From Clostridia bacterium (GTDB lineage Bacteria > Bacillota > Clostridia > TANB77 > CAG-508), in the NCBI GenBank assembly GCA_051891195.1, contig JBJFEZ010000008.1:340-64339 (forward strand): DNA of 64,000 nucleotides. Reading direction: 5' to 3'. The notes beneath the pieces were generated by a model. It was not told the DNA's origin and made no database searches. It was given only the letters and a program-made list of their open reading frames with translations. A program made the translations under genes and the position numbers. Numbering within the stretch: the stretch's first letter is position 1; each line of letters starts with the position of its first letter. Positions 4,046 through 27,219 of the stretch are shown piece after piece.

Positions 4046-4091
4046 TGGTTGTGTGGGTAAGACTCGGACTTACGACCTTCGGGTTATGAGC
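4046..4091 (-). other. displaced tRNA-fMet-like 3' half (anticodon loop to CCA) at attL
   Basis: Aligns base for base with 42962-43007. It is identical over 19 bp, then has 8 substitutions, including compensatory T-stem changes (GATAG/CTATC versus GTAAG/CTTAC). Confidence 0.75.
4073..4091. repeat. attL core (19-bp direct repeat cgaccttcgggttatgagc)
   Basis: Exact copy of 42989-43007. Confidence 0.85.
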
Positions 4092-4536: not shown

Positions 4537-4767
4537 AAAATCACTCTCCTTTTACATATTATAGCATTTTATGTAAAGTTTGTGTGTCGAACGGTGTCGT
4601 TTAGATAAAATTTCTATAATCAATTTTTTCCTTGATTTTTCAATGAAAAACGACCCTCTAAAATCAATTTTAAGCCTTTTTTATTTTTGAGACATATAGT
4701 TTGTTGTATTAATTTTATATATTTTTTATATTTTTGACAAATTTCTACATTTTTTTCATTATTGTCC

Positions 4768-4776
4768 TGGTATAAT
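4768..4776 (+). promoter_or_regulatory. extended -10 (TGgTATAAT) for the zinc-ribbon moron
   Basis: tggtataat lies 22 nt upstream of ATG 4798. RBS aaaggggga. Confidence 0.4.
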
Positions 4777-4797
4777 TATATAAAAAGGGGGATTTTT

Positions 4798-5388
4798 ATG
4801 TATTGTAGGAAATGTGGAAATAAATTGTTAGACTCCGATAAATTTTGTGCTAAATGTGGTAATAAAATAATATTAGAAGAAAAAAATTCTAAAATTAAAG
4901 ATGTTAAAAATATTGAAAGTCAAGAGCAACTACAACAAGTATCAACTCAACTTTCTCAAGAAGACAACGTTAATTTAGACAATAATTCAAAAAAGTTACC
5001 TATGAACTGGTGGAAATTTTGGCAATATTTTAGACTACCAGTTGGACTTCTAATATCTATATACAACTTATCATATTATAGTGAAGCTACTATAAACTTT
5101 ATTACAATAATTGTTTTTATTGCTAATATAGTATTAATATGCTTAATTGGATATGCATTCTACGGTTTAATTGAAAGAAAAAAATTCGGATATAATGTTT
5201 TAATAACTGTTCTATTTTTAGAACCATTATGGAACTGTTTTTTTAATTGCTTAGAAAATTGTGATAGCTCTACGCAGATAGCAGAATTTATTATTACATT
5301 TTTATTTGCCTTTGGCTTTATTTGTGCAGTATGGGTTTATCCTAATTATGTTTATTTTACCAAAAGAAAAAAATTGTTTTGTATGTAA
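4798..5388 (+). CDS. zinc-ribbon membrane protein (prophage-end moron)
   Basis: MYCRKCGNKLLDSDKFCAKCGNKI zinc ribbon followed by about 4 TM helices. Own promoter and terminator. Opposite strand to all late genes. ATG 4798 is preferred over the TTG at 4762. Confidence 0.7.
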   Translation: MYCRKCGNKLLDSDKFCAKCGNKIILEEKNSKIKDVKNIESQEQLQQVSTQLSQEDNVNLDNNSKKLPMNWWKFWQYFRLPVGLLISIYNLSYYSEATINFITIIVFIANIVLICLIGYAFYGLIERKKFGYNVLITVLFLEPLWNCFFNCLENCDSSTQIAEFIITFLFAFGFICAVWVYPNYVYFTKRKKLFCM

Positions 5389-5419
5389 AAGAGGACATTT
5401 AAAAACGTCCTCTTTTTTT
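5389..5419. terminator. bidirectional hairpin between convergent genes
   Basis: aagaggac..gtcctctt stem flanked by A and T runs. Confidence 0.6.
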
Positions 5420-8400
5420 ACCATTCTACTGTACCATCTTTATATACTGTAAATCCTTTTAATTTACTATATAATTTTAATTTATCTTCTTTACTTAAAT
5501 TTGAACTTTTAATATAATTTGCTAAAGTAGTTCGTTCGCTACTCTCTAATTTATATTGAGTTCCTAACAATAGCAATCTTTGTGTATATGATATTTTCAT
5601 TTCGTTTAAATATGTTCTTCTTTTTTTCTCTGCACTTCCAGTTATTGTTTTTCCTTTTAATGTACCATCATCTTTCTTGTCTGAAGAAAAATCTTGTTGT
5701 TTATAGTTTAAGTATTTATCTATATTTAATCCGTCTTCTGTAAAAAAGTTTTTAATTAAAGGATAAGTTTCATCTTCTGAAGATAATATATAATTTTCAT
5801 ATAGTACTGTTTTTTCTTTGTTTGAATAATTGGAGTCTACTAAAATTTGTATTTTTTCGTCAGCATTCTTTACTCCTGCTGTATTTATCTTATAGCTATA
5901 ATATGTTGATGCTTTTACATCTTTCAAAATTTCTCTTGTCTTAGAATATTCTTTGGTATCTAATCCTAGCACATCATATTTTGCTTTTGAATATGAATCT
6001 GAAATAATTTCGTTTATTACTTTTGCCTTTTCATCATTGCTTAACTTTTTATAGTTTTTACTAGTCAATAGACTATTTAGAGATTCTTCTACATATTTCC
6101 CACTAACTTTTTGAAAATTACTTCTTTGTGTTGATGTCATTGTTATTTTTTCGCCATTACTATTTATATAATATGGAGCTGTTCTTGGAAATATTGTTGT
6201 ATCTCCTGTTTGCATATACACATTATAAATTTCTTCTCCGACTTTACTTAATTGACCTTTATTCGTATTTGCAGGATTAAACATTACATTCCATAAATTA
6301 TTATTGCCTCCATATTTTTGTATATCATTTCCTAGAGTGTCTACTGCCACAGGTAATGTTTGACTTAACCCAGGAATTTTAGCTTTTATTGAATTTATTG
6401 CACTTTGTACTGGTTCATTATATTCAAAAGATGTTCTTTGTGTGCTATCTATCATATCTGCAATTTGCTTACTAAATGTAGGTATTGCTCTAGCTGGTAA
6501 TTCTAATATAGCTTGTGAAAGGTTTTCTAAAGTAGTTCCATTTCCATTTAAAACAGTATTTAAACTTTCCATAAATGATTGCTGTAGTAACTGTTCTGTT
6601 CCTATGTCCATAGCTTTAATTGCTTTTTCTATAGCGTTAGCATCTGGATTGTCTTTACTATATTTAACATAGTTTGTCATTATTGCTAAAGGTGTCGCAA
6701 CTGGTTGAGCCCAATCGTATGTGAAACTTTTATCACCAATTTTTATTGAATAACTGCTAATTCCCAAAGAATTTTTCATAAAGTTTTTAATGTCTTTGTC
6801 GTCATCAGATTCTCCTGTTGCTATGCCTGCTTTTGCTAAACCATATGCTAAAACGTAAAGAAGTGTTCCTGCCAATCCTTTACCAACATTTTGAACAAAA
6901 TTATGCTGTAGTTGTGCAGAATACTGTCCATTTTGTAATGAATTTGTAAATTTCTTTGCATCTAAAGCTAATGTCTTTGTTAACCCTACTGGCGAATAAT
7001 CTACAATAGCTTTTGTTAAATTTGCTGGTGTTTTTGCAAATGGAATTAAAACATCTCCTAGTCCGTAGCCTTTAATGTTTGCTTTATTTAAAATGTTTCT
7101 TATGCTTAAAACTGCTTGAGTATAATTATTACTATCTTGCCAAGTTCTTTGTAAAGCCTCATTAGTTGCTATATCGATCATATCTTGGTTAACTTCTGTA
7201 GTATTATTTAAAACCATCTGATTATTAATAGAATTAGTAAATGTTGCTTCATAAAATCCTCTATCTCCAACATCTAATGCAAAAGATAATATGTTATCTA
7301 CCCTATTAAGTGCTTTGCCAATCCCATTGTCTTTAAAACTTTTTCCTTCTCCTATTTCAAATCTATTGTCTTCAACATTTCTTGTATTGATACCTTTTTT
7401 AAAATCATCATATGATTCAAATACACCTTTTCCAAAACCTTTAGCATATCCCTTAATTCCCTCTTTAGTAATTCCAGTTGTTCTTATTCCTGTTTTTTTA
7501 GAAATTAATTTATCTAATGCTCCAGCAAAAACATCACTTGTTGCATTTACAGGTAATACAACAGCATTCCCCATAACATTTCTTACTTGTGTTTTAGGAT
7601 TAAATAACATTGATATACGCATCCACGCTTTTACACTTTGACCTGTTGTAGCTGGAATTTTATCACTTACGAGTTTTTGAATTTGTGCTAGTTTTACATT
7701 TTTCTCTCTTCCATCTTCTAACTCAGAGACTTCTTTCATTGTATCTAGTATTGTCTGAGTTTCTTCTTGAGTTAAATTAAATTTGTCTTGATTAGCTTCT
7801 ATCCATTCTTTAGATTTTCCCTCTACCATTTTACTATATACTTCATTTAGTTCACTTTGTGCATAATAAAACATACCTTCCGGTGTCAACCTTGAAAGTA
7901 TGTTATAAGCTTGTACAGCTTGACCTGCGCTCGTTCCCATTTGTCTCATTTTTTTTGCAACTTCTACAGCTCCCTGATAATCTCCAGAGTCTTGATATTG
8001 CTTTAATAATATCCAGCCTTTTGCAACATCTTCTGCACTTGTATTTTTATCATTTTTGCTAAACCAATTTAATGTTTCTTTTTCTCCTCCGTCTTTTAAA
8101 GAATTATAAGCTTTTTCTAATGTTTTTTCATTAGTAATTCCTTTATAATATCTTATATTCTCCTCTTGTGACATAACTTTTCTTAAATCTTCATTCAAGA
8201 ATTGAGAATCCACTGCAATATTAGATAAGAAGTTACTTTGTTTGTTTCCTCTCTCATATTTTTTTGAATTTAATTTTGGTGTTGTATTTGCATCTTCTCT
8301 TGACAAATTAGAGATTTCACTAGGATTTAATATTTTATTTTTTTGCTGTCTAGTATATTCTCCCGTTTCTAATGTATTATTTTTTGCAGTTGGAGCTTGT

Positions 8401-11400
8401 TGTTTGTCTGCTATTGGTAATTTTACTTCTTGTATTGTTTGTCCTTTTCCTGTACTTTTATAGTTTTCGTCTAGGTATTGTTGCCAAGCATTATTTTTTT
8501 GAACTGAATATCTAAATTGCGCTAATTCACTTTGTTTTGGAAATTCTCCGTTTTTAAAATAATACTGTATATCGCTAATTATCTTACTCGAAGATGTACC
8601 AGCTTTATATTCTGCACTATCATAAGTAGTATTAGTTTTGTCTATGTCTATATAAATCTCGCCATTAACACTATCTATATATTCACGCAATTTATTATAT
8701 TGCTTCATGTTTGGTTCTATTTTTAAATTAATTCCTCCACCTTCGGGAATAATTCTTATATTTCCCATATCAATAAATGTATTCATATCTACATCTATTT
8801 CATTTATTTGTCTATGGTCTAAAGTTCTGCTTCCAGATGGTCCACCTTCGTGCCTTCCAGAAAAATCAATTTGATTTCCGTTAGTATCAATATAGGGCGT
8901 TTCTTTAAAATTCTTTGTAATTCCAAAATGTTCTTCTGCATCTCTCACTATGTTGTCAGTACTTCTCGTATCCGTTGAATTACCCATTAATATACTATTT
9001 ATAGCCTCATATTGGGCTTGATATTCATTATACGCATTATCATAGTATCTTATTTTATCTGCATATTTTTGTGCTTTATCCATTATGTCATTTACTTCTT
9101 TTGGTACCACATCATTAGTAGCAAAATCATTTAGGGCATTTTTAAATTCTTCTGTATTTTGAAATTCTTTATATTCTTTTCTTAGTCTATCAACTTCTTG
9201 CAACATATTTTCTTTATTTTCTATTACTTCAGTAATTTTTTCATTTAAAGTTTGGTTATCTAAACCAATATATCTATGTAATTGTTTTTTTGCTTCTTCA
9301 CTTAGCTCTGTATTATTTTTAGACAAATTAAAAGAACCTGAATTATTTTCAGATTCTTGAATAGAATATTTAGTAGTATTGACATTTTCATTTTGAGGTG
9401 TTATACTATTATTAATAGAAGAGTTAGCAACGGATACAGTTTTTACACTGTAATTGCTAGCTCTTTCTTTTATGTTTGTTATATCATATAATAGCTTTCC
9501 GTTTTTTCCATTAGCAATATTTAACCATCCCGAATATGTTTTGTCTCCAACTTTGAATACTGTTTCGTAATAATCCCAACCATCTTTAGCAAATATATGC
9601 CTACCGTCATCTGGCTCACTTTTTATGAATTGAGATATTTCTAATAGGTTATCTAATTCAGTAGAAGCTTTCATTTTAGAAGAGTAAGTCGTATTATCTA
9701 GCCCATTTTTAGGATGTGTATATTCAGTTGCTGTTTTTCTTGATATATTTATAGTATTATCATCTTTTAGTAATCCATTTTCTCTAAAATTATTTAAAAT
9801 ATATTCTTGTGCTATTTTAGTTTGTTCTTTAATACTTTTCCCTTCAAAAATATTTTGGTCTGTATCTACTCTTACATATTTATTTCCATTGCTATCAGTT
9901 TGAATACTATATTTTGAATTATTGTTATTGCCTTTATAATCTTGTCTATAAGCATTTTCAAATTTGTTTTTAACATCTGCCCAAAATAACCTTTCGCTAC
10001 TATATCCTGTTAATTTGTTTATTTTATTTAATTTATCAACAACCCAATTATATATTTTTCTTCCTAATGTTGGCTTTTCCATTGTAAGATTATTAATGAA
10101 GTTTTGGTCTCCTAATTTATTTCCTAAAATATCAGCAACAGCTTCATTATCTACTAAGCTTTGAAATTCTATATTATTTCTATCATACACTTTAGAATAT
10201 ATATCTTCCAATGATTTTCTTGCTTTTTCAAAATCTACATATCCTTTGTCATAATTTAATATTAAATCTTTTAGTTCATTATATTCTGCTGTGCCTTCTA
10301 AGTCGTGTGTTAATTCGTGCATAATTACATTTTGAAGTGTTTTATTTGTATCTGCATTAGGGTTTAATATTATTTCTCTTACTTGTATTCCGTCAACGTC
10401 AGTGCTAGTTTTCCATATAGCATTAGTATTATTATCAGTAAATAAATCAGCATTATATGTTGTTTTTATTCCTCTTTCTTGTGTAACTCTATTTATTGAT
10501 TTTACTGTTTTATTATTAATATCTATATTATATTTTTTAGCACTTTCTTCATAATTTTTAGTTAGATAATTGTTTTGTTCGTTTGCAACTGGCAATATAT
10601 TGTCTATCTGTTCCATATTTTGATTTTGAGGCATTTTTATTCCAGAAGGTATAATTTGTTGTTCTTGAACGTTATTTACGTTATTAGTTGTATTTTGTTG
10701 CAAATTTTGATTATTTAAGCTTTCCTGTACTTGAACTTTATTTGCATTGTATGCTTTTTTTCCATAACCTCCAGTAAGTGCATTTAACACTATTGTACTT
10801 AACATTGTTGTAATAGCTGTTTCGCTCCAATCAGATATTGAATATGAAGCATTTGGGTCTACTGTTCCTTTGTCTATAGCTGTTCCTAGAACATCTGAAA
10901 TTGTTTCCTCTAATATTTCTCCTGGTATATCTAAACCTTTTTTTATTAAGAAATTAGCAACTTCATTTTTAACCTTTTTATCTATGCCGTTTGTTATAAT
11001 GTCATCTAATGCTCCTTTTCCAAATATATTTACACCACCTGTTAGCATTTCTGATCCTATTTCTATCATAGCCTTAGTGTTACCTACTTTTACAGCTTGG
11101 TCTAATTCTGCGCCTTTATTTAAAGCTTCTTGTGTTGCTTGCCCTTTAGCACTCATTCCCATAGTTGCTAATCCAGCAGTAGGACTTCCTGTTAATGCAG
11201 TTACTCCTATAGAAGGCAACATATTTCCTACTGCTTGAGATGCTCCACCTAGTAATCTAGTTAACTCATCTTGTTTCTCTGCTTCTTCTGCAATGTATTC
11301 TTGTAATTTTTGACTTGGTTGTGATATTACATTATTTATATTCAAGATTTCTTCACTTGCTTTTGGAGCTATCTTTCCTACTATTTGATTACTAGAATTG

Positions 11401-12149
11401 AATAAACTCTTGGCAGGAACATCATTAATCACATCGTCTGTAGCATTTATTCCTATATTAGCCATTTTTTGATATATATTTTTATCTTTGTCTGATATGG
11501 TTTGTAATATTTCATTTATTCTTTCAGGGGCTTTTTTTAATGAATTTGTCATTCCTGACATTGGATTCGTCATATCTAAAAGTGATTTAATAAAATTTGT
11601 TCCTACCTCAAGCGTTTCTTTTTCTTCGCCTTTATTCATCTCATTTGCCATATCGGTTAATCCAGCTTGTGCTATTCCTGTTATTCCTGTTACCGCTCCG
11701 CTTCCTGCACTTTTTCCAATAAAAGATAGTTTATCTCCTACCTTTTGTAAATAATTTCTGTCATCTGTTATACCTTTTGTTAATTTATACATATCACCGT
11801 CTTTTAATCCTTTGAAGCTATTTTTTTCTTCCGTTGTAGATAACCTTGCTGTTGGTAAAACATCTACTTTAGTTGGTATATTTTGTCTATAACTCGCATA
11901 TGATGTTTTGCTTTTTTTATTACTCGCAGTTGGTAGTTGTACTGTAGTTTTATCTTTTTTTAGGTTTTCATTAAAAGCACTATTTTTCTTTGTATCTATC
12001 TCATTATTTTTCGTTGCATATTTATTAAATAATTGATTTGCTTTTTTTTGCTCTTCTTGAACTTTTTTGACGTTTTCTTCTCTATTTGCTCTTAACTGCT
12101 TTAAATATTCTTCCTTTTCTTTTTCATCTTTGAATTTTGTTATAGGCAT
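5418..12149 (-). CDS. giant (2,243 aa) virion-associated polyvalent protein with zincin HExxH motif
   Basis: Uninterrupted ORF, RBS aggagg. N-terminal Gly/Ala-rich TMP-like segments. IMHELTHDLEG metallopeptidase motif. Several blocks resemble phage polyvalent-protein domains. Confidence 0.75.
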   Translation of the reverse strand: MPITKFKDEKEKEEYLKQLRANREENVKKVQEEQKKANQLFNKYATKNNEIDTKKNSAFNENLKKDKTTVQLPTASNKKSKTSYASYRQNIPTKVDVLPTARLSTTEEKNSFKGLKDGDMYKLTKGITDDRNYLQKVGDKLSFIGKSAGSGAVTGITGIAQAGLTDMANEMNKGEEKETLEVGTNFIKSLLDMTNPMSGMTNSLKKAPERINEILQTISDKDKNIYQKMANIGINATDDVINDVPAKSLFNSSNQIVGKIAPKASEEILNINNVISQPSQKLQEYIAEEAEKQDELTRLLGGASQAVGNMLPSIGVTALTGSPTAGLATMGMSAKGQATQEALNKGAELDQAVKVGNTKAMIEIGSEMLTGGVNIFGKGALDDIITNGIDKKVKNEVANFLIKKGLDIPGEILEETISDVLGTAIDKGTVDPNASYSISDWSETAITTMLSTIVLNALTGGYGKKAYNANKVQVQESLNNQNLQQNTTNNVNNVQEQQIIPSGIKMPQNQNMEQIDNILPVANEQNNYLTKNYEESAKKYNIDINNKTVKSINRVTQERGIKTTYNADLFTDNNTNAIWKTSTDVDGIQVREIILNPNADTNKTLQNVIMHELTHDLEGTAEYNELKDLILNYDKGYVDFEKARKSLEDIYSKVYDRNNIEFQSLVDNEAVADILGNKLGDQNFINNLTMEKPTLGRKIYNWVVDKLNKINKLTGYSSERLFWADVKNKFENAYRQDYKGNNNNSKYSIQTDSNGNKYVRVDTDQNIFEGKSIKEQTKIAQEYILNNFRENGLLKDDNTINISRKTATEYTHPKNGLDNTTYSSKMKASTELDNLLEISQFIKSEPDDGRHIFAKDGWDYYETVFKVGDKTYSGWLNIANGKNGKLLYDITNIKERASNYSVKTVSVANSSINNSITPQNENVNTTKYSIQESENNSGSFNLSKNNTELSEEAKKQLHRYIGLDNQTLNEKITEVIENKENMLQEVDRLRKEYKEFQNTEEFKNALNDFATNDVVPKEVNDIMDKAQKYADKIRYYDNAYNEYQAQYEAINSILMGNSTDTRSTDNIVRDAEEHFGITKNFKETPYIDTNGNQIDFSGRHEGGPSGSRTLDHRQINEIDVDMNTFIDMGNIRIIPEGGGINLKIEPNMKQYNKLREYIDSVNGEIYIDIDKTNTTYDSAEYKAGTSSSKIISDIQYYFKNGEFPKQSELAQFRYSVQKNNAWQQYLDENYKSTGKGQTIQEVKLPIADKQQAPTAKNNTLETGEYTRQQKNKILNPSEISNLSREDANTTPKLNSKKYERGNKQSNFLSNIAVDSQFLNEDLRKVMSQEENIRYYKGITNEKTLEKAYNSLKDGGEKETLNWFSKNDKNTSAEDVAKGWILLKQYQDSGDYQGAVEVAKKMRQMGTSAGQAVQAYNILSRLTPEGMFYYAQSELNEVYSKMVEGKSKEWIEANQDKFNLTQEETQTILDTMKEVSELEDGREKNVKLAQIQKLVSDKIPATTGQSVKAWMRISMLFNPKTQVRNVMGNAVVLPVNATSDVFAGALDKLISKKTGIRTTGITKEGIKGYAKGFGKGVFESYDDFKKGINTRNVEDNRFEIGEGKSFKDNGIGKALNRVDNILSFALDVGDRGFYEATFTNSINNQMVLNNTTEVNQDMIDIATNEALQRTWQDSNNYTQAVLSIRNILNKANIKGYGLGDVLIPFAKTPANLTKAIVDYSPVGLTKTLALDAKKFTNSLQNGQYSAQLQHNFVQNVGKGLAGTLLYVLAYGLAKAGIATGESDDDKDIKNFMKNSLGISSYSIKIGDKSFTYDWAQPVATPLAIMTNYVKYSKDNPDANAIEKAIKAMDIGTEQLLQQSFMESLNTVLNGNGTTLENLSQAILELPARAIPTFSKQIADMIDSTQRTSFEYNEPVQSAINSIKAKIPGLSQTLPVAVDTLGNDIQKYGGNNNLWNVMFNPANTNKGQLSKVGEEIYNVYMQTGDTTIFPRTAPYYINSNGEKITMTSTQRSNFQKVSGKYVEESLNSLLTSKNYKKLSNDEKAKVINEIISDSYSKAKYDVLGLDTKEYSKTREILKDVKASTYYSYKINTAGVKNADEKIQILVDSNYSNKEKTVLYENYILSSEDETYPLIKNFFTEDGLNIDKYLNYKQQDFSSDKKDDGTLKGKTITGSAEKKRRTYLNEMKISYTQRLLLLGTQYKLESSERTTLANYIKSSNLSKEDKLKLYSKLKGFTVYKDGTVEW

Positions 12150-12160
12150 ATTTACTCCTC

Positions 12161-13339
12161 CTATTTAGTTGCTTTATAGCCATAATAAGCTAATAATTCT
12201 TCCGCACTTGCAAAAGTTTTTCCTGTATATCCATCTTTTATAGGCTTTGTTATTCCAGGTCCTTGAATTACTTTCATATTATTTAACACTTCTTGATAGC
12301 TTTTGTCTGTTGAAATGCTTGTATCATTATTTGAACTTATTGAAATTTTTCCAGTAGTTCCTCCTGAGCCACTACTTCTTGAGCTACTACTTGAACTGCT
12401 ACTTCTAGCTAAGTTTTTTTTTGAAAGTTCATATTCTTTTAGCCAGTTACTTTGAGCTAATGCATCTTGTTGTTTTTGATATTCAAATTCTGCTAATGCT
12501 TGTTGATATTGTTTTTCCCAATTACTTTGAGATAAAGCATCTTGTTGTTTTTGATAATCGTAATTTGCAAATTTTATATAATTACTTAATGCATCTTGGT
12601 ATTTTTGATATGCTAATTCATTGCCATATTTCTGTAATTCTAACTTTGCATTTTCTATATCTGCCAACAATTCATTTTGCTTTATTGCATACTGTAGATT
12701 TGTTTCATTTACTTGCTTATTAATGTTATCTATGGACTTATCTCTGCTTGTTTGTAATGTTGCTAAATTATTTCCATATGAATTTTCTAAATTAGAATAT
12801 GCACTATTCACAACTCCAGTTGTATTAAGACCAGCCTGTGATAACTGTTGTTGTAAATTTTGTTGACCTAACATTTTATTAATATACGCTTGTCTAGCAT
12901 TATCGTTATATGTTTGCATTACATCGTCTTTTTGTGCATTTATTTTGTCTACAGCCAATGTTTGCTGATTTGCTAAGGCTTGTTTCTGTTGTTCTGCAAT
13001 TTTTTCATATTGAGCTAATAAAGAATTAGTATCATTACCAACATTTGCAGTTTGATTTTGAGCATATGCTTGAGCTAACTCTTGTGTACTTTGTGTTGGT
13101 GTTTGCACTACTGGTGCTGGTTGAATCGTTTGTGTTGTAGGTTTTGAAGCTGTGTTCGTATTGTTAGTACTATTAGTTGTTCCTGAAGTAGTACCTGGTA
13201 TATTTAGTGTTTTTCCTGCATATATTAAATTAGCATTTTTAATATAAGGATTTAATCCCATTAAAGTTGATACGTTTGTATTATATTTTTGTGCAATTCC
13301 TGATAATGTATCTCCGCTTTTTATTTTATATGTTGCCAT
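12161..13339 (-). CDS. LysM-domain, Gln-rich coiled-coil repeat protein
   Basis: N-terminal LysM ([23 protein letters not shown]), tandem [13 protein letters not shown] repeats, poly-Ser tract. ATG 13339 is preferred because GGAGG lies 5 nt upstream. Confidence 0.7.
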
Positions 13340-13357
13340 ATTTACCTCCATAAAATA

Positions 13358-13381
13358 AAGCTAGGCTCTAAACCTAGCTTT
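13358..13381 (-). terminator. hairpin immediately after the endolysin stop
   Basis: agctagg..cctagct stem, then T-rich sequence on the minus strand. Confidence 0.45.
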
Positions 13382-14284
13382 TTATTTTAATAATAATTCT
13401 GTAGTTTTTGCTCCTACATAACCGTCTACTGTTAATCCGTTTGCTTTTTGAAATGCTTTTACTGCATTTCTAGTTGCTGGACCATAACTTCCATCTATTC
13501 CATACTTTCCTAAAGAGTATCCTTTCTTTAAGAGTCTCTCTTGAATAAATCTTACGTGATTATTTACAATTACTTTTTTTAACAAACTATAATGTAAATA
13601 ATATTTGTTAGCTTTTGCTTTACTGTCTGCTCCATAGCTATTGTCTTCTGCTAGTCCACACTTATATACTTTGTTCATAACTTTTTGCCATTCTAGTACG
13701 GTTGTGTCTTTTTTGACTGGTTCTTTTATTGTAGGTTCTTTAGTATCTTCTTTGTATTTTGGTCTTCCATAACCCGCTATGTAATTTGCATTTAAAGGGT
13801 ACTCTTTTTGGCATACCATTGTTGAATATCCATTTCCGTCTTTGCTTGTATTTCCTTCTATAGTATAAACTTTCTTACTGTCTACTTTATAAACTAATCC
13901 AGTATGGTATATATCGTCGCCATTTCCAAAGAATATTTGGTCTCCTACTTTAGGTGTATTATATAGTTGTCCTTTACTTTTATAAAATCCCATTGAGAAA
14001 TAACAACCTGCTCCTGTACTTTTCTTTGGTTGGCACAATAACTCTAATGCTTTGTCTACTCCAAAAGATTGTACAAAACACCAGTCTACGAATACATCGC
14101 ACCAGTCATAGCCGTTTTTCTTTCCATTATAAAAGCCCGTGATATTATCTAAATCACGAGCATATTTATTATAATTATTTCTTCCTGCATTTTCTGTTTT
14201 GCTATCTAAATTAGAATTTGTTTTTTTCTCAATATAGCCTACTTCTTTTAAGGCTATATCTATTACTTTTTGAGCTTCGTTCAT
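13382..14284 (-). CDS. endolysin: CHAP/NlpC-P60-type amidase/peptidase plus C-terminal PG_binding_1
   Basis: Catalytic Cys context NGYDWCDVFVDWC, HTGLVY..IEGNTS, and C-terminal YGPATRNAVKAFQKANGLTVDGYVG. Confidence 0.85.
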   Translation of the reverse strand: MNEAQKVIDIALKEVGYIEKKTNSNLDSKTENAGRNNYNKYARDLDNITGFYNGKKNGYDWCDVFVDWCFVQSFGVDKALELLCQPKKSTGAGCYFSMGFYKSKGQLYNTPKVGDQIFFGNGDDIYHTGLVYKVDSKKVYTIEGNTSKDGNGYSTMVCQKEYPLNANYIAGYGRPKYKEDTKEPTIKEPVKKDTTVLEWQKVMNKVYKCGLAEDNSYGADSKAKANKYYLHYSLLKKVIVNNHVRFIQERLLKKGYSLGKYGIDGSYGPATRNAVKAFQKANGLTVDGYVGAKTTELLLK

Positions 14285-21915: not shown

Positions 21916-22878
21916 CTAGTCATTTACGCCTGTTTCTACTCTTACTAAAGCAAGAGGTTGTGTAATAACTGCTGTAAAACAGTTTTTCCAACCAGCACTT
22001 GCTCTTTGGTCTAATGGGTCTGCTGAACCAGCTGAGCCATTAGGTTTTACTATAATTTCTGGTTTTCCAGCTCCACCTTCTAGGTCAACACAAGCATAAG
22101 AGTCTTTTCCATAAGCATATGCAATATGTACAGGAATTTTAGAAGAACCAGCTGAAGAATCAACAGTATTTAAGTTAGTTGTTTCAAAGAATTTCATTCC
22201 GTGCATTTTTCCTAGCTCGCCTTTTTCCATTTGTTCTGGTTTAGAATATTTAGATACATCAACCCAAGCAGAGTCTCCCATTAAATCATAAGCAATATCT
22301 GGGTCAATTTGCATATGATAATATCCATCTGGAAATCTTTTAGCATTTGCATTTTTTAATTTTCTTACAATTTTCTTAATGTCGTTTGCTATTAGGTGTT
22401 TTGTTTGAGCTGACTCTAGTCCTGCTCTAGTTGTTGCACCACCAGCAAAATATACATTAGTACCTCCAGAAATAGCTGTTTGAATACGATTATCTACTAC
22501 TATTCCAGCTTCTTCTCCTAGTAATTGAGATGTTTCTGTAATTACTGGGTCAATTCCTGTCATTTGAATTAAATCAGAAATTAATACATAATCTCCTTCT
22601 TGTGCAACTGTTGCTGTTACAGTTGTCACATTTAAATCATTTCCATCTGGTGTTACACCTTCTGTTAAACTTGCACTTGGTGCAGTCAATGAATTAAATT
22701 TTCTAAAATTCATTGTTCTTCCTTGATTTTTTGGTAATTTTTTCTTTTGAGCATCTTTATAGAAGTTTAATTGTGGTAATAATCTCTCCAATAAAGCCCT
22801 TTCATAAAAAGTCTTGTCCTCTGGAGCTAATTGATTTGCTCCTGATACATTTGTTATTGTTTGTGTTTTAGTAGCCAT
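21916..22878 (-). CDS. major capsid protein (N4-gp56-like family)
   Basis: 320 aa following the scaffold gene. The pattern ..LPKNQGRTMNFRKF..LTEGVTP.. is typical of that family. Confidence 0.7.
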   Translation of the reverse strand: MATKTQTITNVSGANQLAPEDKTFYERALLERLLPQLNFYKDAQKKKLPKNQGRTMNFRKFNSLTAPSASLTEGVTPDGNDLNVTTVTATVAQEGDYVLISDLIQMTGIDPVITETSQLLGEEAGIVVDNRIQTAISGGTNVYFAGGATTRAGLESAQTKHLIANDIKKIVRKLKNANAKRFPDGYYHMQIDPDIAYDLMGDSAWVDVSKYSKPEQMEKGELGKMHGMKFFETTNLNTVDSSAGSSKIPVHIAYAYGKDSYACVDLEGGAGKPEIIVKPNGSAGSADPLDQRASAGWKNCFTAVITQPLALVRVETGVND

Positions 22879-23843: not shown

Positions 23844-25619
23844 TTATATCATAGGTTGTTGTGCTTGTACCATATTAGCCTGTGCTGTTGGTGCAGGTGT
23901 TTCGGCTTGTTGTATAATTTGCATCACACATTGTAATATCTGTGGATTTTGCATTATTTTTTGACTGATTTCAGGCGGTAACATTACTTTTTGTCTTATT
24001 TCCTTTAGCTTAGCTTTAAATGGCATTGCTGTTTCTGGATATAACTCAATGTAATCGTCAAATGTTATATCTCCTCTTTGTAAAGCTTGTTCTAATAAAT
24101 TAATACTTAAGCTTTCACTATAAGCACTTCCAGGTCCTACATCAATCGTTGTTTCAAAATCCATATTTTGATACATACTTCCATTGAATATGTTTACTTG
24201 TTGTTTATTATCATTTTCTACTACATAAGATACATTAAAACGATAATACGCTTTAAAAAACTGTTCCCATACTCTTGCTATTTTTTCGTGAGTTCTCCAA
24301 AATCTTTTTTGCATATCTTCAATAGGAACTTTAGCTTGTGTTTGTAACGCTACAATAGCGCTACCACTCATATTTTTTCCTAGTACTTCTCCATTTGCTA
24401 CTTCTGTTGCTCCTGTTACTGTTCTTGTAATTTCTATTAATTTATCTGCAACAGTCAGTGGTGTATTATTAAAGTTAGGAGGGTCTAAGTATTTTATTCC
24501 ATCAAATCCTGGACTATAGTCTGTTATTACTTCTCCAGGCATATTAGTTATTTGTTTTCCTTGCAAAGCAATAGGTCTAATTTTTATTTTAGGAAATCCC
24601 ATATTTTGACTTGCCATTTGCATCATAGCATAATCAAAGTTAACAGCTTTTTGCGTAGGTATTAATTGCTCTACTTCTCCTATTCCGTATATTGATTTTT
24701 CTCTTTCTTCATAAGAATCAACTATTATAGGATATAAAGTCATTTTGAAGTCTGTAATTTCAGGTTTATCTATATCAACCTGTTCTTCATCTTCGTTTGT
24801 TTTTCCTTCTTCGTCTATTTCTATATCAACTTGAGTTGCATCTGGTGTAAGCGGTGTTTCATTTTGAATAATCATATTTTGAGTACTTTTTGTATAATAT
24901 ACCTCTCCATTTTTTCTAAAGTATTTTGTAAGTACTGTCGCATATTCCTCTCCATCTTGTTCTTCACTGTTATAGTTTTTTTCAGTATCATCGTCTGCTG
25001 TTATTAATTCTAACTCTGTTTTAGTAGCTCCATTTCTTTTAGCTATGTCTTTTAAAGTTTGTACATTTTCTCTACTTTGTATAATTATCCATTTTTGTTT
25101 TTGTTCATCTTTTTGCTTAGGATTTGCAAATACTATGCTTAAACAATCTATTATTTGACCATTTAAACCTCCATTAAATTTTGCCATACCTGTTTTTTTC
25201 TCTTTATCCCAAAAATAATGATAAATATATGTACCTTTTTTTAGCCCATCTGCGATTGCTTGATTGTCTAAATCTTCTTGTTTTATTTCTTTATTTATAT
25301 GTTTTGCAAAATTAGTAAACGAACTTGCCCCCTCTGTTGCTATTTTGCCTTCTTCTTGGTCATATATTAGTGGTTTATATATCATTGATATTTTACTAGA
25401 CAAAATATTTGCTTTCTTACCATTAACTATAAATTTAATTATATTTATAACTGGTCTTGGCATATTTTTAGTTCTTTCTGTTGCTTGTGGCCATTGTCTT
25501 CCTTCAAAGAAATCAACACATTGTTCGCAAGTTTCTTTTAAGCGTAACTTTTTTTGATATTCTAGTCCTTTTTGCCAGTCATTCCATATTTTTTTTGCTA
25601 ATTCTTCTCTATTTGACAT
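23844..25619 (-). CDS. portal protein
   Basis: 591 aa immediately after the terminase genes. Confidence 0.65.
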   Translation of the reverse strand: MSNREELAKKIWNDWQKGLEYQKKLRLKETCEQCVDFFEGRQWPQATERTKNMPRPVINIIKFIVNGKKANILSSKISMIYKPLIYDQEEGKIATEGASSFTNFAKHINKEIKQEDLDNQAIADGLKKGTYIYHYFWDKEKKTGMAKFNGGLNGQIIDCLSIVFANPKQKDEQKQKWIIIQSRENVQTLKDIAKRNGATKTELELITADDDTEKNYNSEEQDGEEYATVLTKYFRKNGEVYYTKSTQNMIIQNETPLTPDATQVDIEIDEEGKTNEDEEQVDIDKPEITDFKMTLYPIIVDSYEEREKSIYGIGEVEQLIPTQKAVNFDYAMMQMASQNMGFPKIKIRPIALQGKQITNMPGEVITDYSPGFDGIKYLDPPNFNNTPLTVADKLIEITRTVTGATEVANGEVLGKNMSGSAIVALQTQAKVPIEDMQKRFWRTHEKIARVWEQFFKAYYRFNVSYVVENDNKQQVNIFNGSMYQNMDFETTIDVGPGSAYSESLSINLLEQALQRGDITFDDYIELYPETAMPFKAKLKEIRQKVMLPPEISQKIMQNPQILQCVMQIIQQAETPAPTAQANMVQAQQPMI

Positions 25620-25872: not shown

Positions 25873-27219
25873 CTAATACCAAATATCTTCATCAGCTTCT
25901 TCTGTCTGCAATTCAAATGGTAATTCTTGTTTTTTAGGTGTAAAAATAGGCTCTTGTGTCCAATAAACACAAAAACCTCTTATTGCATCAGGTGCGTGTG
26001 TAATTTCGTGTGGTTCTGTTGCCACATCTCCTATTTTCTTTTCATCGTGCTGTAATTGTGGTATGCACCTTATTAAGTTTCTACAAGTATTAAATATCTT
26101 TAATCTTGATGTATCACAGCCCTGCTCATCTTTAAACACTTTTAGCCACTCTTTCATTTGTAGCCAACCTTGAACTCTATCATTGTTTGTCTTATATAAA
26201 TCAATTCCACCTTCTGCAAATATATCAGCTGTACTCTTTCCAGTCTCTTTATGTCTATTCCATAAGTCAGGTGGAGCTAAATACATATAAACATTTTCAT
26301 TTGTCATTTCTTTTATTTTGTCTCTTGCTTCAGATACCAATAAATTACTTTGATATACTTCTCTAAACACATATGCGTTATTATTATAATCTACTGCTAT
26401 CCAATAACCCGCTAACATATCTAATCCATAATCCATAACAAAGTATATATACCAATCCTTTGGTATTTCAAATGGTTCAATAACGTGTATATTTCTTTTA
26501 AATTCTGAAAAGAATTGTCCTTCATATACGTCCCATTCTCCATAAAGCATTGCTCTTTTTCTGTCTTCTGGCAAACTCTCTAATGCTTTTACATAGTCAG
26601 GGTCATTTTTCATTATATATTCATTTTCATATACTAATGCTGGTATAAAACTATATTCCCCAGGTATTTCTCCTTCGTTATATTCTTTGTCTATAAATAA
26701 TCTTTTTACCCAACTATGTCCAACTCCTCCAGGATTGCAAGTTAAATACATTCTTGGTTTTACTTGTTTCTTGCATTGTCCTGAAAGTCTATTGCTTTCT
26801 TTTAAACAATTAAACTGAAATTCTGTAAAATGTGTTGCTTCTTCCATAAATATTACTTCATAAGCTTGTCCTTGATATTGTAATACATCTGTTTCTGTAT
26901 CACAATATCCTAGCTTTATCCTACTACTATTTGGAAAATCAAATACTTTTTCTTGTGTTTTATATTGTGCTATTTTTTCTTTTTGTTGGCATTTTAATTC
27001 TTTTTGTAATGGTACAACGTGATTTTCTAAAAGTTCATTATATGTTCTTCTTAATAGAAGTATTTGTATTCCTGGATAATATAGTGCTAATAGTATTGCT
27101 TTTATTCTAGCAACAAATGATTTTCCTCCACCTCTTGCTCCACCATAACAAGTATATCTAGTCTTGCTTTTGCAAAATTCTTCTTGTTTTGGATATAAAT
27201 TAGGTACTTTATATTCCAT
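25873..27219 (-). CDS. terminase large subunit
   Basis: Walker A GGARGGGKS plus a C-terminal nuclease region. 448 aa. Confidence 0.85.
   Translation of the reverse strand: MEYKVPNLYPKQEEFCKSKTRYTCYGGARGGGKSFVARIKAILLALYYPGIQILLLRRTYNELLENHVVPLQKELKCQQKEKIAQYKTQEKVFDFPNSSRIKLGYCDTETDVLQYQGQAYEVIFMEEATHFTEFQFNCLKESNRLSGQCKKQVKPRMYLTCNPGGVGHSWVKRLFIDKEYNEGEIPGEYSFIPALVYENEYIMKNDPDYVKALESLPEDRKRAMLYGEWDVYEGQFFSEFKRNIHVIEPFEIPKDWYIYFVMDYGLDMLAGYWIAVDYNNNAYVFREVYQSNLLVSEARDKIKEMTNENVYMYLAPPDLWNRHKETGKSTADIFAEGGIDLYKTNNDRVQGWLQMKEWLKVFKDEQGCDTSRLKIFNTCRNLIRCIPQLQHDEKKIGDVATEPHEITHAPDAIRGFCVYWTQEPIFTPKKQELPFELQTEEADEDIWY

Follow-up and report, generated by a model that had tools for sequence, protein, structure and literature searches.

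A giant polyvalent-type protein with a constant two-part frame and exchangeable cassettes, probably carried in the virion of a podovirus-like Clostridia prophage

The window analysed here, a stretch of 64,000 nucleotides from a Clostridia bacterium (assembly GCA_051891195.1, contig JBJFEZ010000008.1, positions 340 to 64,339 of the forward strand), carries a prophage of about 38.9 kb, whose attachment cores at 4073-4091 and 42989-43007 were taken as given. At one end of this prophage lies a giant gene that occupies about 17% of the element and is, by the listing of open reading frames (5418..12149, minus strand, 2,243 amino acids), the largest of the window, in line with a preliminary description made from the sequence alone. 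That description had also called the product a polyvalent protein, perhaps an injected multi-effector or channel protein, a reading now supported, within the reach of sequence analysis, by an LPD3 domain, an invariant gluzincin signature, the cassettes carried by relatives, a late-gene synteny and the likeness of the modelled C-terminal part to predicted internal virion proteins. The giant is a phage-type polyvalent protein in which a constant two-part frame holds exchangeable cassettes, and which is probably packaged in the virion and ejected from it. The concept of virion-delivered polyvalent proteins is not new and has been in print since 2017; the giant belongs, by its domain content, to this published class, and its very large family, with a two-part frame of its own, is still unannotated.

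The giant gene and its domains

The gene consists of one uninterrupted reading frame that begins with ATG. No CGG codon occurs in frame, as had been noticed, arginine being encoded mostly by AGA (49 codons), and the reported composition is borne out as well: lysine makes up 13.7% of residues 1-300, and residues 300-530 contain 10.4% glycine and 8.7% alanine, this Gly/Ala-rich region being kept in 238 of the 262 family proteins collected. The 2,243 residues include no cysteine. AlphaFold models were obtained for residues 1-1200, which form a string of domains (mean predicted local distance difference test, pLDDT, of 62), and for the C-terminal module, hereafter the C-module; together they display at least five structured blocks. 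The gene and its parts are the following.

5418..12149, minus strand: giant polyvalent-protein gene, single open frame, 2,243 residues and stop
11952..12149, minus strand: long helix rich in Lys and Glu, residues 1-66
10770..11798, minus strand: helical Gly/Ala-rich region, residues 118-460
9915..10589, minus strand: zincin-like (gluzincin-type) domain, residues 521-745
9486..9836, minus strand: LPD3 domain, residues 772-888
8985..9302, minus strand: coiled-coil cassette, residues 950-1055
8433..8924, minus strand: cassette of unknown function, residues 1076-1239
5421..8402, minus strand: C-module, the all-helical C-terminal part of the frame, residues 1250-2243
6819..6875, minus strand: glycine-zipper-like helix LAGTLLYVLAYGLAKAGIA, residues 1759-1777
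9900-9914, 9357-9371 and 8499-8513, minus strand: three [K/R]-Y-S-[I/V]-Q motifs

The N-terminal helix, modelled over residues 9-66, is variable among relatives, and high-scoring segment pairs with relatives mostly begin no earlier than about residues 275-325 of the giant. Within the Gly/Ala-rich region, which AlphaFold also renders as helices, the conserved part spans about residues 285-465 and is referred to here as the N-frame; phrog_14422 gives a weak match to residues 303-389.

The zincin motif of the preliminary description was found as VIMHELTHDLEG, with HELTH at residues 611-615 (nucleotides 10305-10319) and E669 as the candidate third ligand. Across 10 diverse relatives, with identities down to 29%, N596, P597, H611, E612, H615 and E669 are all invariant. 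The model places three strands (562-565, 577-583 and 589-595, pLDDT 73-88) ahead of the HExxH helix (601-617) and sets E669 in a helix spanning residues 660-678. Searches for a curated zincin gave no Pfam hit, even from a fragment, and no significant PDB profile or Foldseek PDB match; the best PDB profile match is the WLM/Wss1 protease (E = 0.54), over the motif helix only. Foldseek with the N-terminal half of the giant returned nothing from the PDB, the zincin-like domain not being picked up from the multi-domain model. In terms of nomenclature, residues 521-745 are best called zincin-like, on the basis of their signature and predicted topology.

Blocks reminiscent of polyvalent-protein domains had been suspected, and one of them is a Pfam LPD3 domain (PF18798, E = 1.1e-7) that scores 32.5 bits against a cut-off of 27, is modelled with a pLDDT of 75-92 and recurs in a relative, P0002. 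It emerged when the proposed domain-by-domain profile search was carried out: the Pfam scan of the whole 2,243-residue chain missed it, and a 161-residue fragment revealed it. For giant proteins of low complexity, domain scans are thus better done in tiles. Downstream of LPD3 come the coiled-coil cassette, with helices at residues 965-1054 (pLDDT 70-92), and the cassette at residues 1076-1239. The latter matches by tblastn, at 30% identity and E = 4e-7, a giant "methyltransferase" polyvalent protein of the Rhodobacteraceae phage LS06-2018-MD07 (locus L085), a marine podovirus whose giant exceeds 3,000 residues and adjoins an annotated internal virion protein. This cassette, undescribed so far, is common to Gram-positive gut phages and marine alphaproteobacterial phages.

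The long C-terminal part without known function that had been reported comes to about 1,000 residues and is the best-conserved stretch of the giant, its most conserved core lying at about residues 1480-2065 (nucleotides 5955-7712). It contains the single strongly hydrophobic segment of the protein (residues 1759-1777, Kyte-Doolittle peak 1.49), a glycine-zipper-like helix that is followed by the invariant acidic loop GESDDDKD; near this helix G530, D535 and D537, in C-module numbering, are invariant.

A family with a constant frame and variable content

More than 1,475 homologues of 1,500-2,650 residues, many of them on 38-40-kb contigs, were returned by a word-indexed search, and an exhaustive HMMER search with residues 1250-2243 retrieved 9,845 clusters, formed at 50% identity, with E <= 1e-3, of which 3,756 reach E <= 1e-30. 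The C-module match is always C-terminal, in proteins of 800-3,200 residues. In pairwise comparisons the C-module is 65-83% identical among relatives, even between proteins with unrelated N-terminal halves, and a second conserved block appears at about residues 300-530, the middle part varying from protein to protein. A hidden Markov model of the N-frame (residues 285-465) matches 238 of the 262 collected proteins. This double conservation, at the C-terminus and in the N-frame, defines a family with a constant two-part frame and a variable content between and before the two parts. Placed between the same two frames, the variable parts of relatives carry, by Pfam, LPD3, LPD23, SprT-like, MuF_C, ParB_N, ART-PolyVal, PBECR3/4 and pol-beta nucleotidyltransferase domains, and such a set of domains is the defining repertoire of phage polyvalent proteins (PMC5512222).

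The joints between these parts are marked in two ways. Breakpoints of BLAST alignments with relatives cluster at residues 725-775 (61 ends), 925-950 (35 ends) and 1200-1225 (75 starts). The pentapeptide [K/R]-Y-S-[I/V]-Q occurs three times in the giant, each time at a module boundary (residues 746-750, 927-931 and 1213-1217), where it coincides with the breakpoint clusters. In the family, YS[IVLM]Q is found 94 times against about 16 in shuffled sequences, a roughly six-fold excess in which the counts are not independent, many of the proteins being closely related; its consensus context is NTTKYS(I/M)QESENN. As a lead from the sequence, these junctions may be places where modules recombine, where the zincin-like domain cuts, or both.

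Conservation and predicted fold of the C-module

Comparison of 28-50 diverse members shows about 70 positions of the C-module without any substitution; many hold polar residues (R, D, N, T, K), in stretches such as NPKTQVRN, DxGDR, IPFAKTPAN, GExDDDKD and YDWAQP, and the core of the module is kept in the most distant family members. The AlphaFold model of the C-module (pLDDT 79, predicted template modelling score 0.64) is globular and consists almost wholly of helix. No Pfam match was found in the C-modules of 28 members and no PHROG match in that of the giant itself, while a search of PDB sequences with a 50-member profile gave only low-complexity matches and Foldseek against solved structures stopped at a best E of 0.33.

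Against predicted viral structures the outcome is different, as 53 entries of BFVD match the C-module by Foldseek at E <= 1e-3. They include metagenomic polyvalent proteins labelled MuF_C, ART-PolyVal, LPD3, LPD38 or nuclease, together with "internal virion proteins" of Pelagibacter phage Eyrgjafa and of the Synechococcus phages S-RIP1, S-CBP3 and S-CBP2 (E from 2e-11 to 5e-10). The alignments with these annotated internal virion proteins run over 850-1,040 columns at 13-15% identity, with template modelling (TM) scores of 0.27-0.41.

Cysteine avoidance

The lack of cysteine is a property of the whole family: its 262 collected proteins contain 159 cysteines in 512,747 residues (0.031%), compared with 0.9% in 10 other proteins of the prophage. 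The portions fetched of the giants of Page, phi24B, phiARM81mr, CF418P1 and two Vibrio phages contain none either. Being common to giants that are unrelated in sequence, this avoidance fits an unfolded passage through the portal and tail channel into a non-cytoplasmic space.

The late transcription unit and gene order in relatives

Upstream of the giant, and all on its strand, lie the genes for TerL, portal, capsid, tail, lysis functions and a LysM protein. The main features of this neighbourhood are listed here.

25873-27219, minus strand: TerL
23844-25619, minus strand: portal
21916-22878, minus strand: major capsid protein
13382-14284, minus strand: CHAP/PG_binding endolysin, upstream of the LysM gene
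12161..13351, minus strand: LysM protein with Gln-rich coiled coil, 396 residues, partner of the giant
12150..12163, minus strand: LysM/giant junction, with the TAG stop (12161-12163), a GAGGAG Shine-Dalgarno sequence and the ATG at 12149
5390..5419, no strand assigned: hairpin AGAGGAC-N10-GTCCTCT with flanking A and T runs

The same strand also encodes a 610-residue virion protein, a 476-residue fibre-like protein, a 499-residue DUF859 tail protein, three small tip-like open reading frames and two small ones in the holin position, the holin assignment in this prophage being taken from the loci of relatives. With the holin call so made, the reported placement of the giant downstream of holin and endolysin agrees with the gene order. 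The structural module was found to contain no tail tube, sheath, chaperone pair or tape-measure gene, as the mention of a phage lacking an obvious tape measure had anticipated, and this points to a podovirus-like particle.

The LysM partner stands directly upstream of the giant here and always does so in close relatives. It consists of a Pfam LysM domain (residues 8-52), a Ser/Thr/Asn linker, a Gln-rich coiled coil holding duplicated QKQQDAL(S/A)QSNW units, a poly-Ser run and a small C-terminal domain, and has no cysteine. A Pfam scan found LysM only and no catalytic domain; a PHROG "transglycosylase" match was rejected because it covers only the LysM domain and a low-complexity part. At the junction, read directly, GAGGAG follows immediately on the TAG and 11 nucleotides separate the LysM stop from the ATG of the giant. 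The translational coupling proposed earlier holds in the sense of a tight spacing; the two frames do not overlap.

On the other side of the giant, the hairpin at 5390..5419, also read directly, separates its stop from the convergent gene 4762-5388 and is likely to be a two-way terminator closing the late operon, so that the giant comes last in the late transcription unit. Another hairpin, with an 11-bp stem, occupies the interval between the endolysin and LysM genes (13357-13381) and looks like a terminator on both strands; it may reduce read-through into the LysM and giant genes. The search for a promoter signal gave nothing above chance (76 sites against 71 expected).

The same arrangement recurs elsewhere. 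On three independent contigs (L001-L003) the order is capsid, proteins of 74, 143, 612 and 323 residues, DUF859, a 118-residue protein, holin, CHAP, LysM and giant; one of these contigs runs on into early genes, which marks it as a phage genome and not merely a prophage end, and L001 is a non-integrated phage contig that keeps the synteny of the giant with structural genes. In distant relatives the next gene after the giant is the endolysin gene (L063, L070, L072), or tail-fibre genes follow (L013 and L040, the latter in Christensenella hongkongensis HKU16), and in the environmental podovirus ctQWt234 (L086) the giant lies between a P22-type "stabilization protein" block upstream and the endolysin downstream. 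The preliminary description had considered a site after the lysis genes atypical of virion genes. The position is as described; since distant relatives and Bacillus phage Page have the giant ahead of the endolysin or beside tail-fibre genes, it is explained by a local rearrangement of a gene of the virion block.

Comparison with known giant proteins

Phage-type polyvalent proteins were defined by Iyer, Burroughs, Anand, de Souza and Aravind (2017, J Bacteriol, PMC5512222). Like them, the giant is a single very large polypeptide in a late/packaging context, with an HExxH metallopeptidase-type hub domain and LPD3, and its relatives swap ART, ParB, MuF_C, PBECR and SprT cassettes. Several domains of the repertoire, a late-gene setting with portal and TerL, and domain shuffling are all present, so that membership of the class is supported, at the level of sequence, by LPD3, the zincin signature and the cassettes of relatives. 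For the published class, packaging and delivery together with the DNA are predicted, and the same prediction applies to the giant. It departs from the class in that both modules of its frame, the C-module above all, match no Pfam model, LPD or other, and in that its zincin-like domain falls below every Pfam metallopeptidase model.

By capsid protein, the nearest isolated phages are the Pageviruses of Bacillus megaterium (42% identity). In Bacillus phage Page, an SLT/NlpC "lytic tail fiber" gene is followed by the 1,679-residue gp20 (LPD38), just before the holins, and the C-terminal region of gp20 is homologous to the giants of Aeromonas, Achromobacter and Vibrio podoviruses and of phi24B-type phages, gp47 included. 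The gp47 protein of phi24B (LPD5, LPD1, LPD38, MuF-C) is abundant in virions by mass spectrometry, invisible by cryo-electron microscopy (cryo-EM) and proposed to be a capsid-packaged ejection protein (bioRxiv 10.64898/2026.04.10.717836); gp69 of Burkholderia phage JC1 (LT-like, LPD3, LPD38) was likewise detected in virions, with 51 unique peptides by mass spectrometry (PMC9144972). In common with phi24B gp47 (2,811 residues), JC1 gp69/Bcep22 gp75 (about 4,500 residues) and Page gp20, the giant is the product of the largest gene of a short-tailed phage, is encoded next to lysis genes where the virion module ends, and goes with a wall-binding or wall-lytic function, either in a separate partner or fused to it; with JC1 gp69 it also shares LPD3. 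The partner differs, being a non-catalytic LysM coiled-coil protein here and an SLT/NlpC (P60) lysin in Page.

No significant similarity was found that links the C-module to the LPD38/LPD5 domains or to the C-terminal 600-800 residues of Page gp20, phi24B gp47 and JC1 gp69 (best BLASTP E 0.22, hhalign E 0.22-0.59). Reciprocal hmmsearch between the C-module and the LPD5/LPD38 giants found nothing, five rounds of jackhmmer with bridging sequences (Paenibacillus, Cohnella, Caulobacteraceae and others) never recruited those giants, and the Pfam LPD38 model was matched neither by 28 members nor by distant homologues. The weak, non-significant alignments between the C-module and the LPD5/LPD38 giants are collinear. 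The relation to the virion-proven giants is one of position and architecture, and possibly of fold, rather than of demonstrated family membership.

The internal virion proteins of T7-like cyanopodoviruses (S-CBP2, S-CBP3, S-RIP1) and of Eyrgjafa resemble the giant in being large, helical and encoded by phages without a tape measure, and differ from it in having no effector cassettes. Another giant of a podovirus with a metallopeptidase domain is the virion RNA polymerase gp50 of coliphage N4, which is a virion protein; in N4-like virion RNA polymerases a fused metallopeptidase domain is a constant feature, and separate regions of the N4 enzyme serve encapsidation and injection (PMC5512222). 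In contrast to gp50, the giant was found to have no polymerase fold or motifs, its C-module being all-helical and without a solved match at E < 0.3. An N4-type or crAss-type virion RNA polymerase was rejected on these grounds, the all-helical model and the lack of a PDB match by sequence or fold. A tape measure was rejected too, given the lack of a tube/chaperone context, the multi-domain build and the globular C-module; no clear homology to a canonical tape-measure protein, which would have spoken against the earlier reading, was found.

Interpretation

If the giant is a virion-delivered polyvalent protein, it would be made late, on one transcript with the LysM coiled-coil protein, and packed into the capsid of a short-tailed phage lacking a tape measure. 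At infection it would exit by way of the portal and tail channel in a mostly unfolded state, preceding or accompanying the DNA, and its frame would help the DNA to cross the thick Gram-positive wall and the membrane, possibly by forming a conduit in which the glycine-zipper helix provides the membrane contact and the LysM partner the wall contact. The cassettes would then act as early effectors, and the zincin-like domain may cut the chain at the [K/R]-Y-S-[I/V]-Q junctions and so free them from the frame.

Several observations weigh against this interpretation. The zincin-like domain lacks a significant Pfam or PDB profile match, and the C-module has no solved-structure match at E < 0.3. The TM scores relating the C-module to annotated internal virion proteins are low, and those annotations are themselves mostly positional. 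There is no sequence link to the virion-proven LPD5/LPD38 giants, so that the connection with them is an analogy accompanied by fold-level hints. Moreover, the conservation of the C-module is above what is usual for ejection proteins, and its many invariant polar residues could be those of an enzyme.

Were the giant an external or tail-lumen structural protein, such as a tape-measure-like plug, a needle or a wall-penetrating device acting with the LysM protein, this would agree with the likeness of its Gly/Ala-rich helical N-region to those of tape measures and the weak phrog_14422 match, with the peptidoglycan binding predicted for LysM, with its place directly 5' of tail-fibre genes in L013 and L040, and with the "lytic tail fiber" label of the neighbouring lysin in Page. 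This is unlikely, as genes for a tube, sheath or chaperone are missing from the prophage, the C-module is modelled as globular, not as one long coiled coil, phi24B gp47 is abundant by mass spectrometry and absent from the external cryo-EM density, and a 250-kDa chain whose enzyme cassettes can be exchanged (ART, ParB and RNases in relatives) suits a delivered cargo better than a tail part. The giant might also reside inside the head without being ejected, as an inner-body, scaffold-like or portal-associated factor of the MuF/SPP1 gp7 kind whose cassettes work in the producer cell or in the capsid; relatives do carry MuF_C, and a part docking to portal or capsid is expected to be as conserved as the C-module. 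Pfam scans of the whole protein and of fragments, however, did not find the N-terminal, portal-binding domain of MuF, the effector cassettes of relatives are of kinds that act in a newly infected cell (PMC5512222), and the avoidance of cysteine fits translocation, which together render such a role rather improbable.

That the giant is no virion part at all, being instead a moron (toxin, defence or exclusion protein) expressed by the lysogen at the prophage end, is suggested by its attL-proximal site beyond the lysis cassette, adjoining the plus-strand moron 4762-5388, and by the 13357-13381 hairpin between the endolysin and LysM genes. This is very improbable considering that the giant shares the strand of the late operon with a tight ribosome-binding-site spacing, that the promoter count stays at chance level, that the synteny with structural genes is kept in the non-integrated contig L001 and in other types of podovirus, and that the size of the family and its C-terminal frame are typical of virion polyvalent proteins. 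Just as little credence is given to the C-module being an unrecognised enzyme, for example a virion-carried polymerase-like activity comparable to the N4 virion RNA polymerase or a wall-modifying one, instead of a passive frame: the roughly 70 invariant and mostly polar residues, and the metallopeptidase fusion that is universal in N4-like virion RNA polymerases (PMC5512222), would be in keeping with it, but the model is almost all-helical, no solved enzyme and hence no solved RNA polymerase is matched at E < 0.3, and 28 members give no Pfam hit. A polyvalent protein packaged in the virion and ejected remains the preferred reading.

Little is understood of how short-tailed phages of Gram-positive gut bacteria, which have no tape measure, bring their DNA through a thick wall, and the family of the giant, with about 9,800 clusters, is a strong candidate for the wall-crossing device. 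A bolder proposal, which we put forward tentatively and hold to be doubtful as a whole, is that N-frame and C-module form an unrecognised single-polypeptide DNA-delivery device of podoviruses infecting Gram-positive bacteria, in the fold class of the core proteins of marine T7-like phages, with cassettes strung between the two modules and released by the zincin at the [K/R]-Y-S-[I/V]-Q junctions. If so, many "polyvalent proteins" would be ejectosomes with cargo. With no entry in Pfam, PHROG or the PDB, the family is labelled "hypothetical" everywhere; its frame is a natural chassis for the swapping of anti-host enzyme cassettes and should be useful for annotating gut viromes and for finding early effectors.

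Distribution of the C-module

In a scan of one genome per species, the C-module was found in uncultured gut Clostridia, in metagenome-assembled genomes (MAGs) of Bacilli/"Tenericutes", RF39-type Bacilli among them, and in Christensenella, Oscillospiraceae and Lachnospiraceae; at 22-30% identity it extends to Paenibacillus, Cohnella, Alkaliphilus, Caulobacteraceae, Calditrichales, Desulfovibrio and others. A 109-kb contig of an uncultured Bacilli MAG (CALVKK010000001.1) bears two copies about 36 kb apart (L024 and L057), which suggests two related prophages side by side. In a MAG of Candidatus Gastranaerophilales (Melainabacteria), a C-module of 52% identity (L038) lies on a contig of 40,030 bp; this is the size of a whole phage of the present type, and the contig may be a phage that was binned wrongly, in which case it is no evidence of that host.

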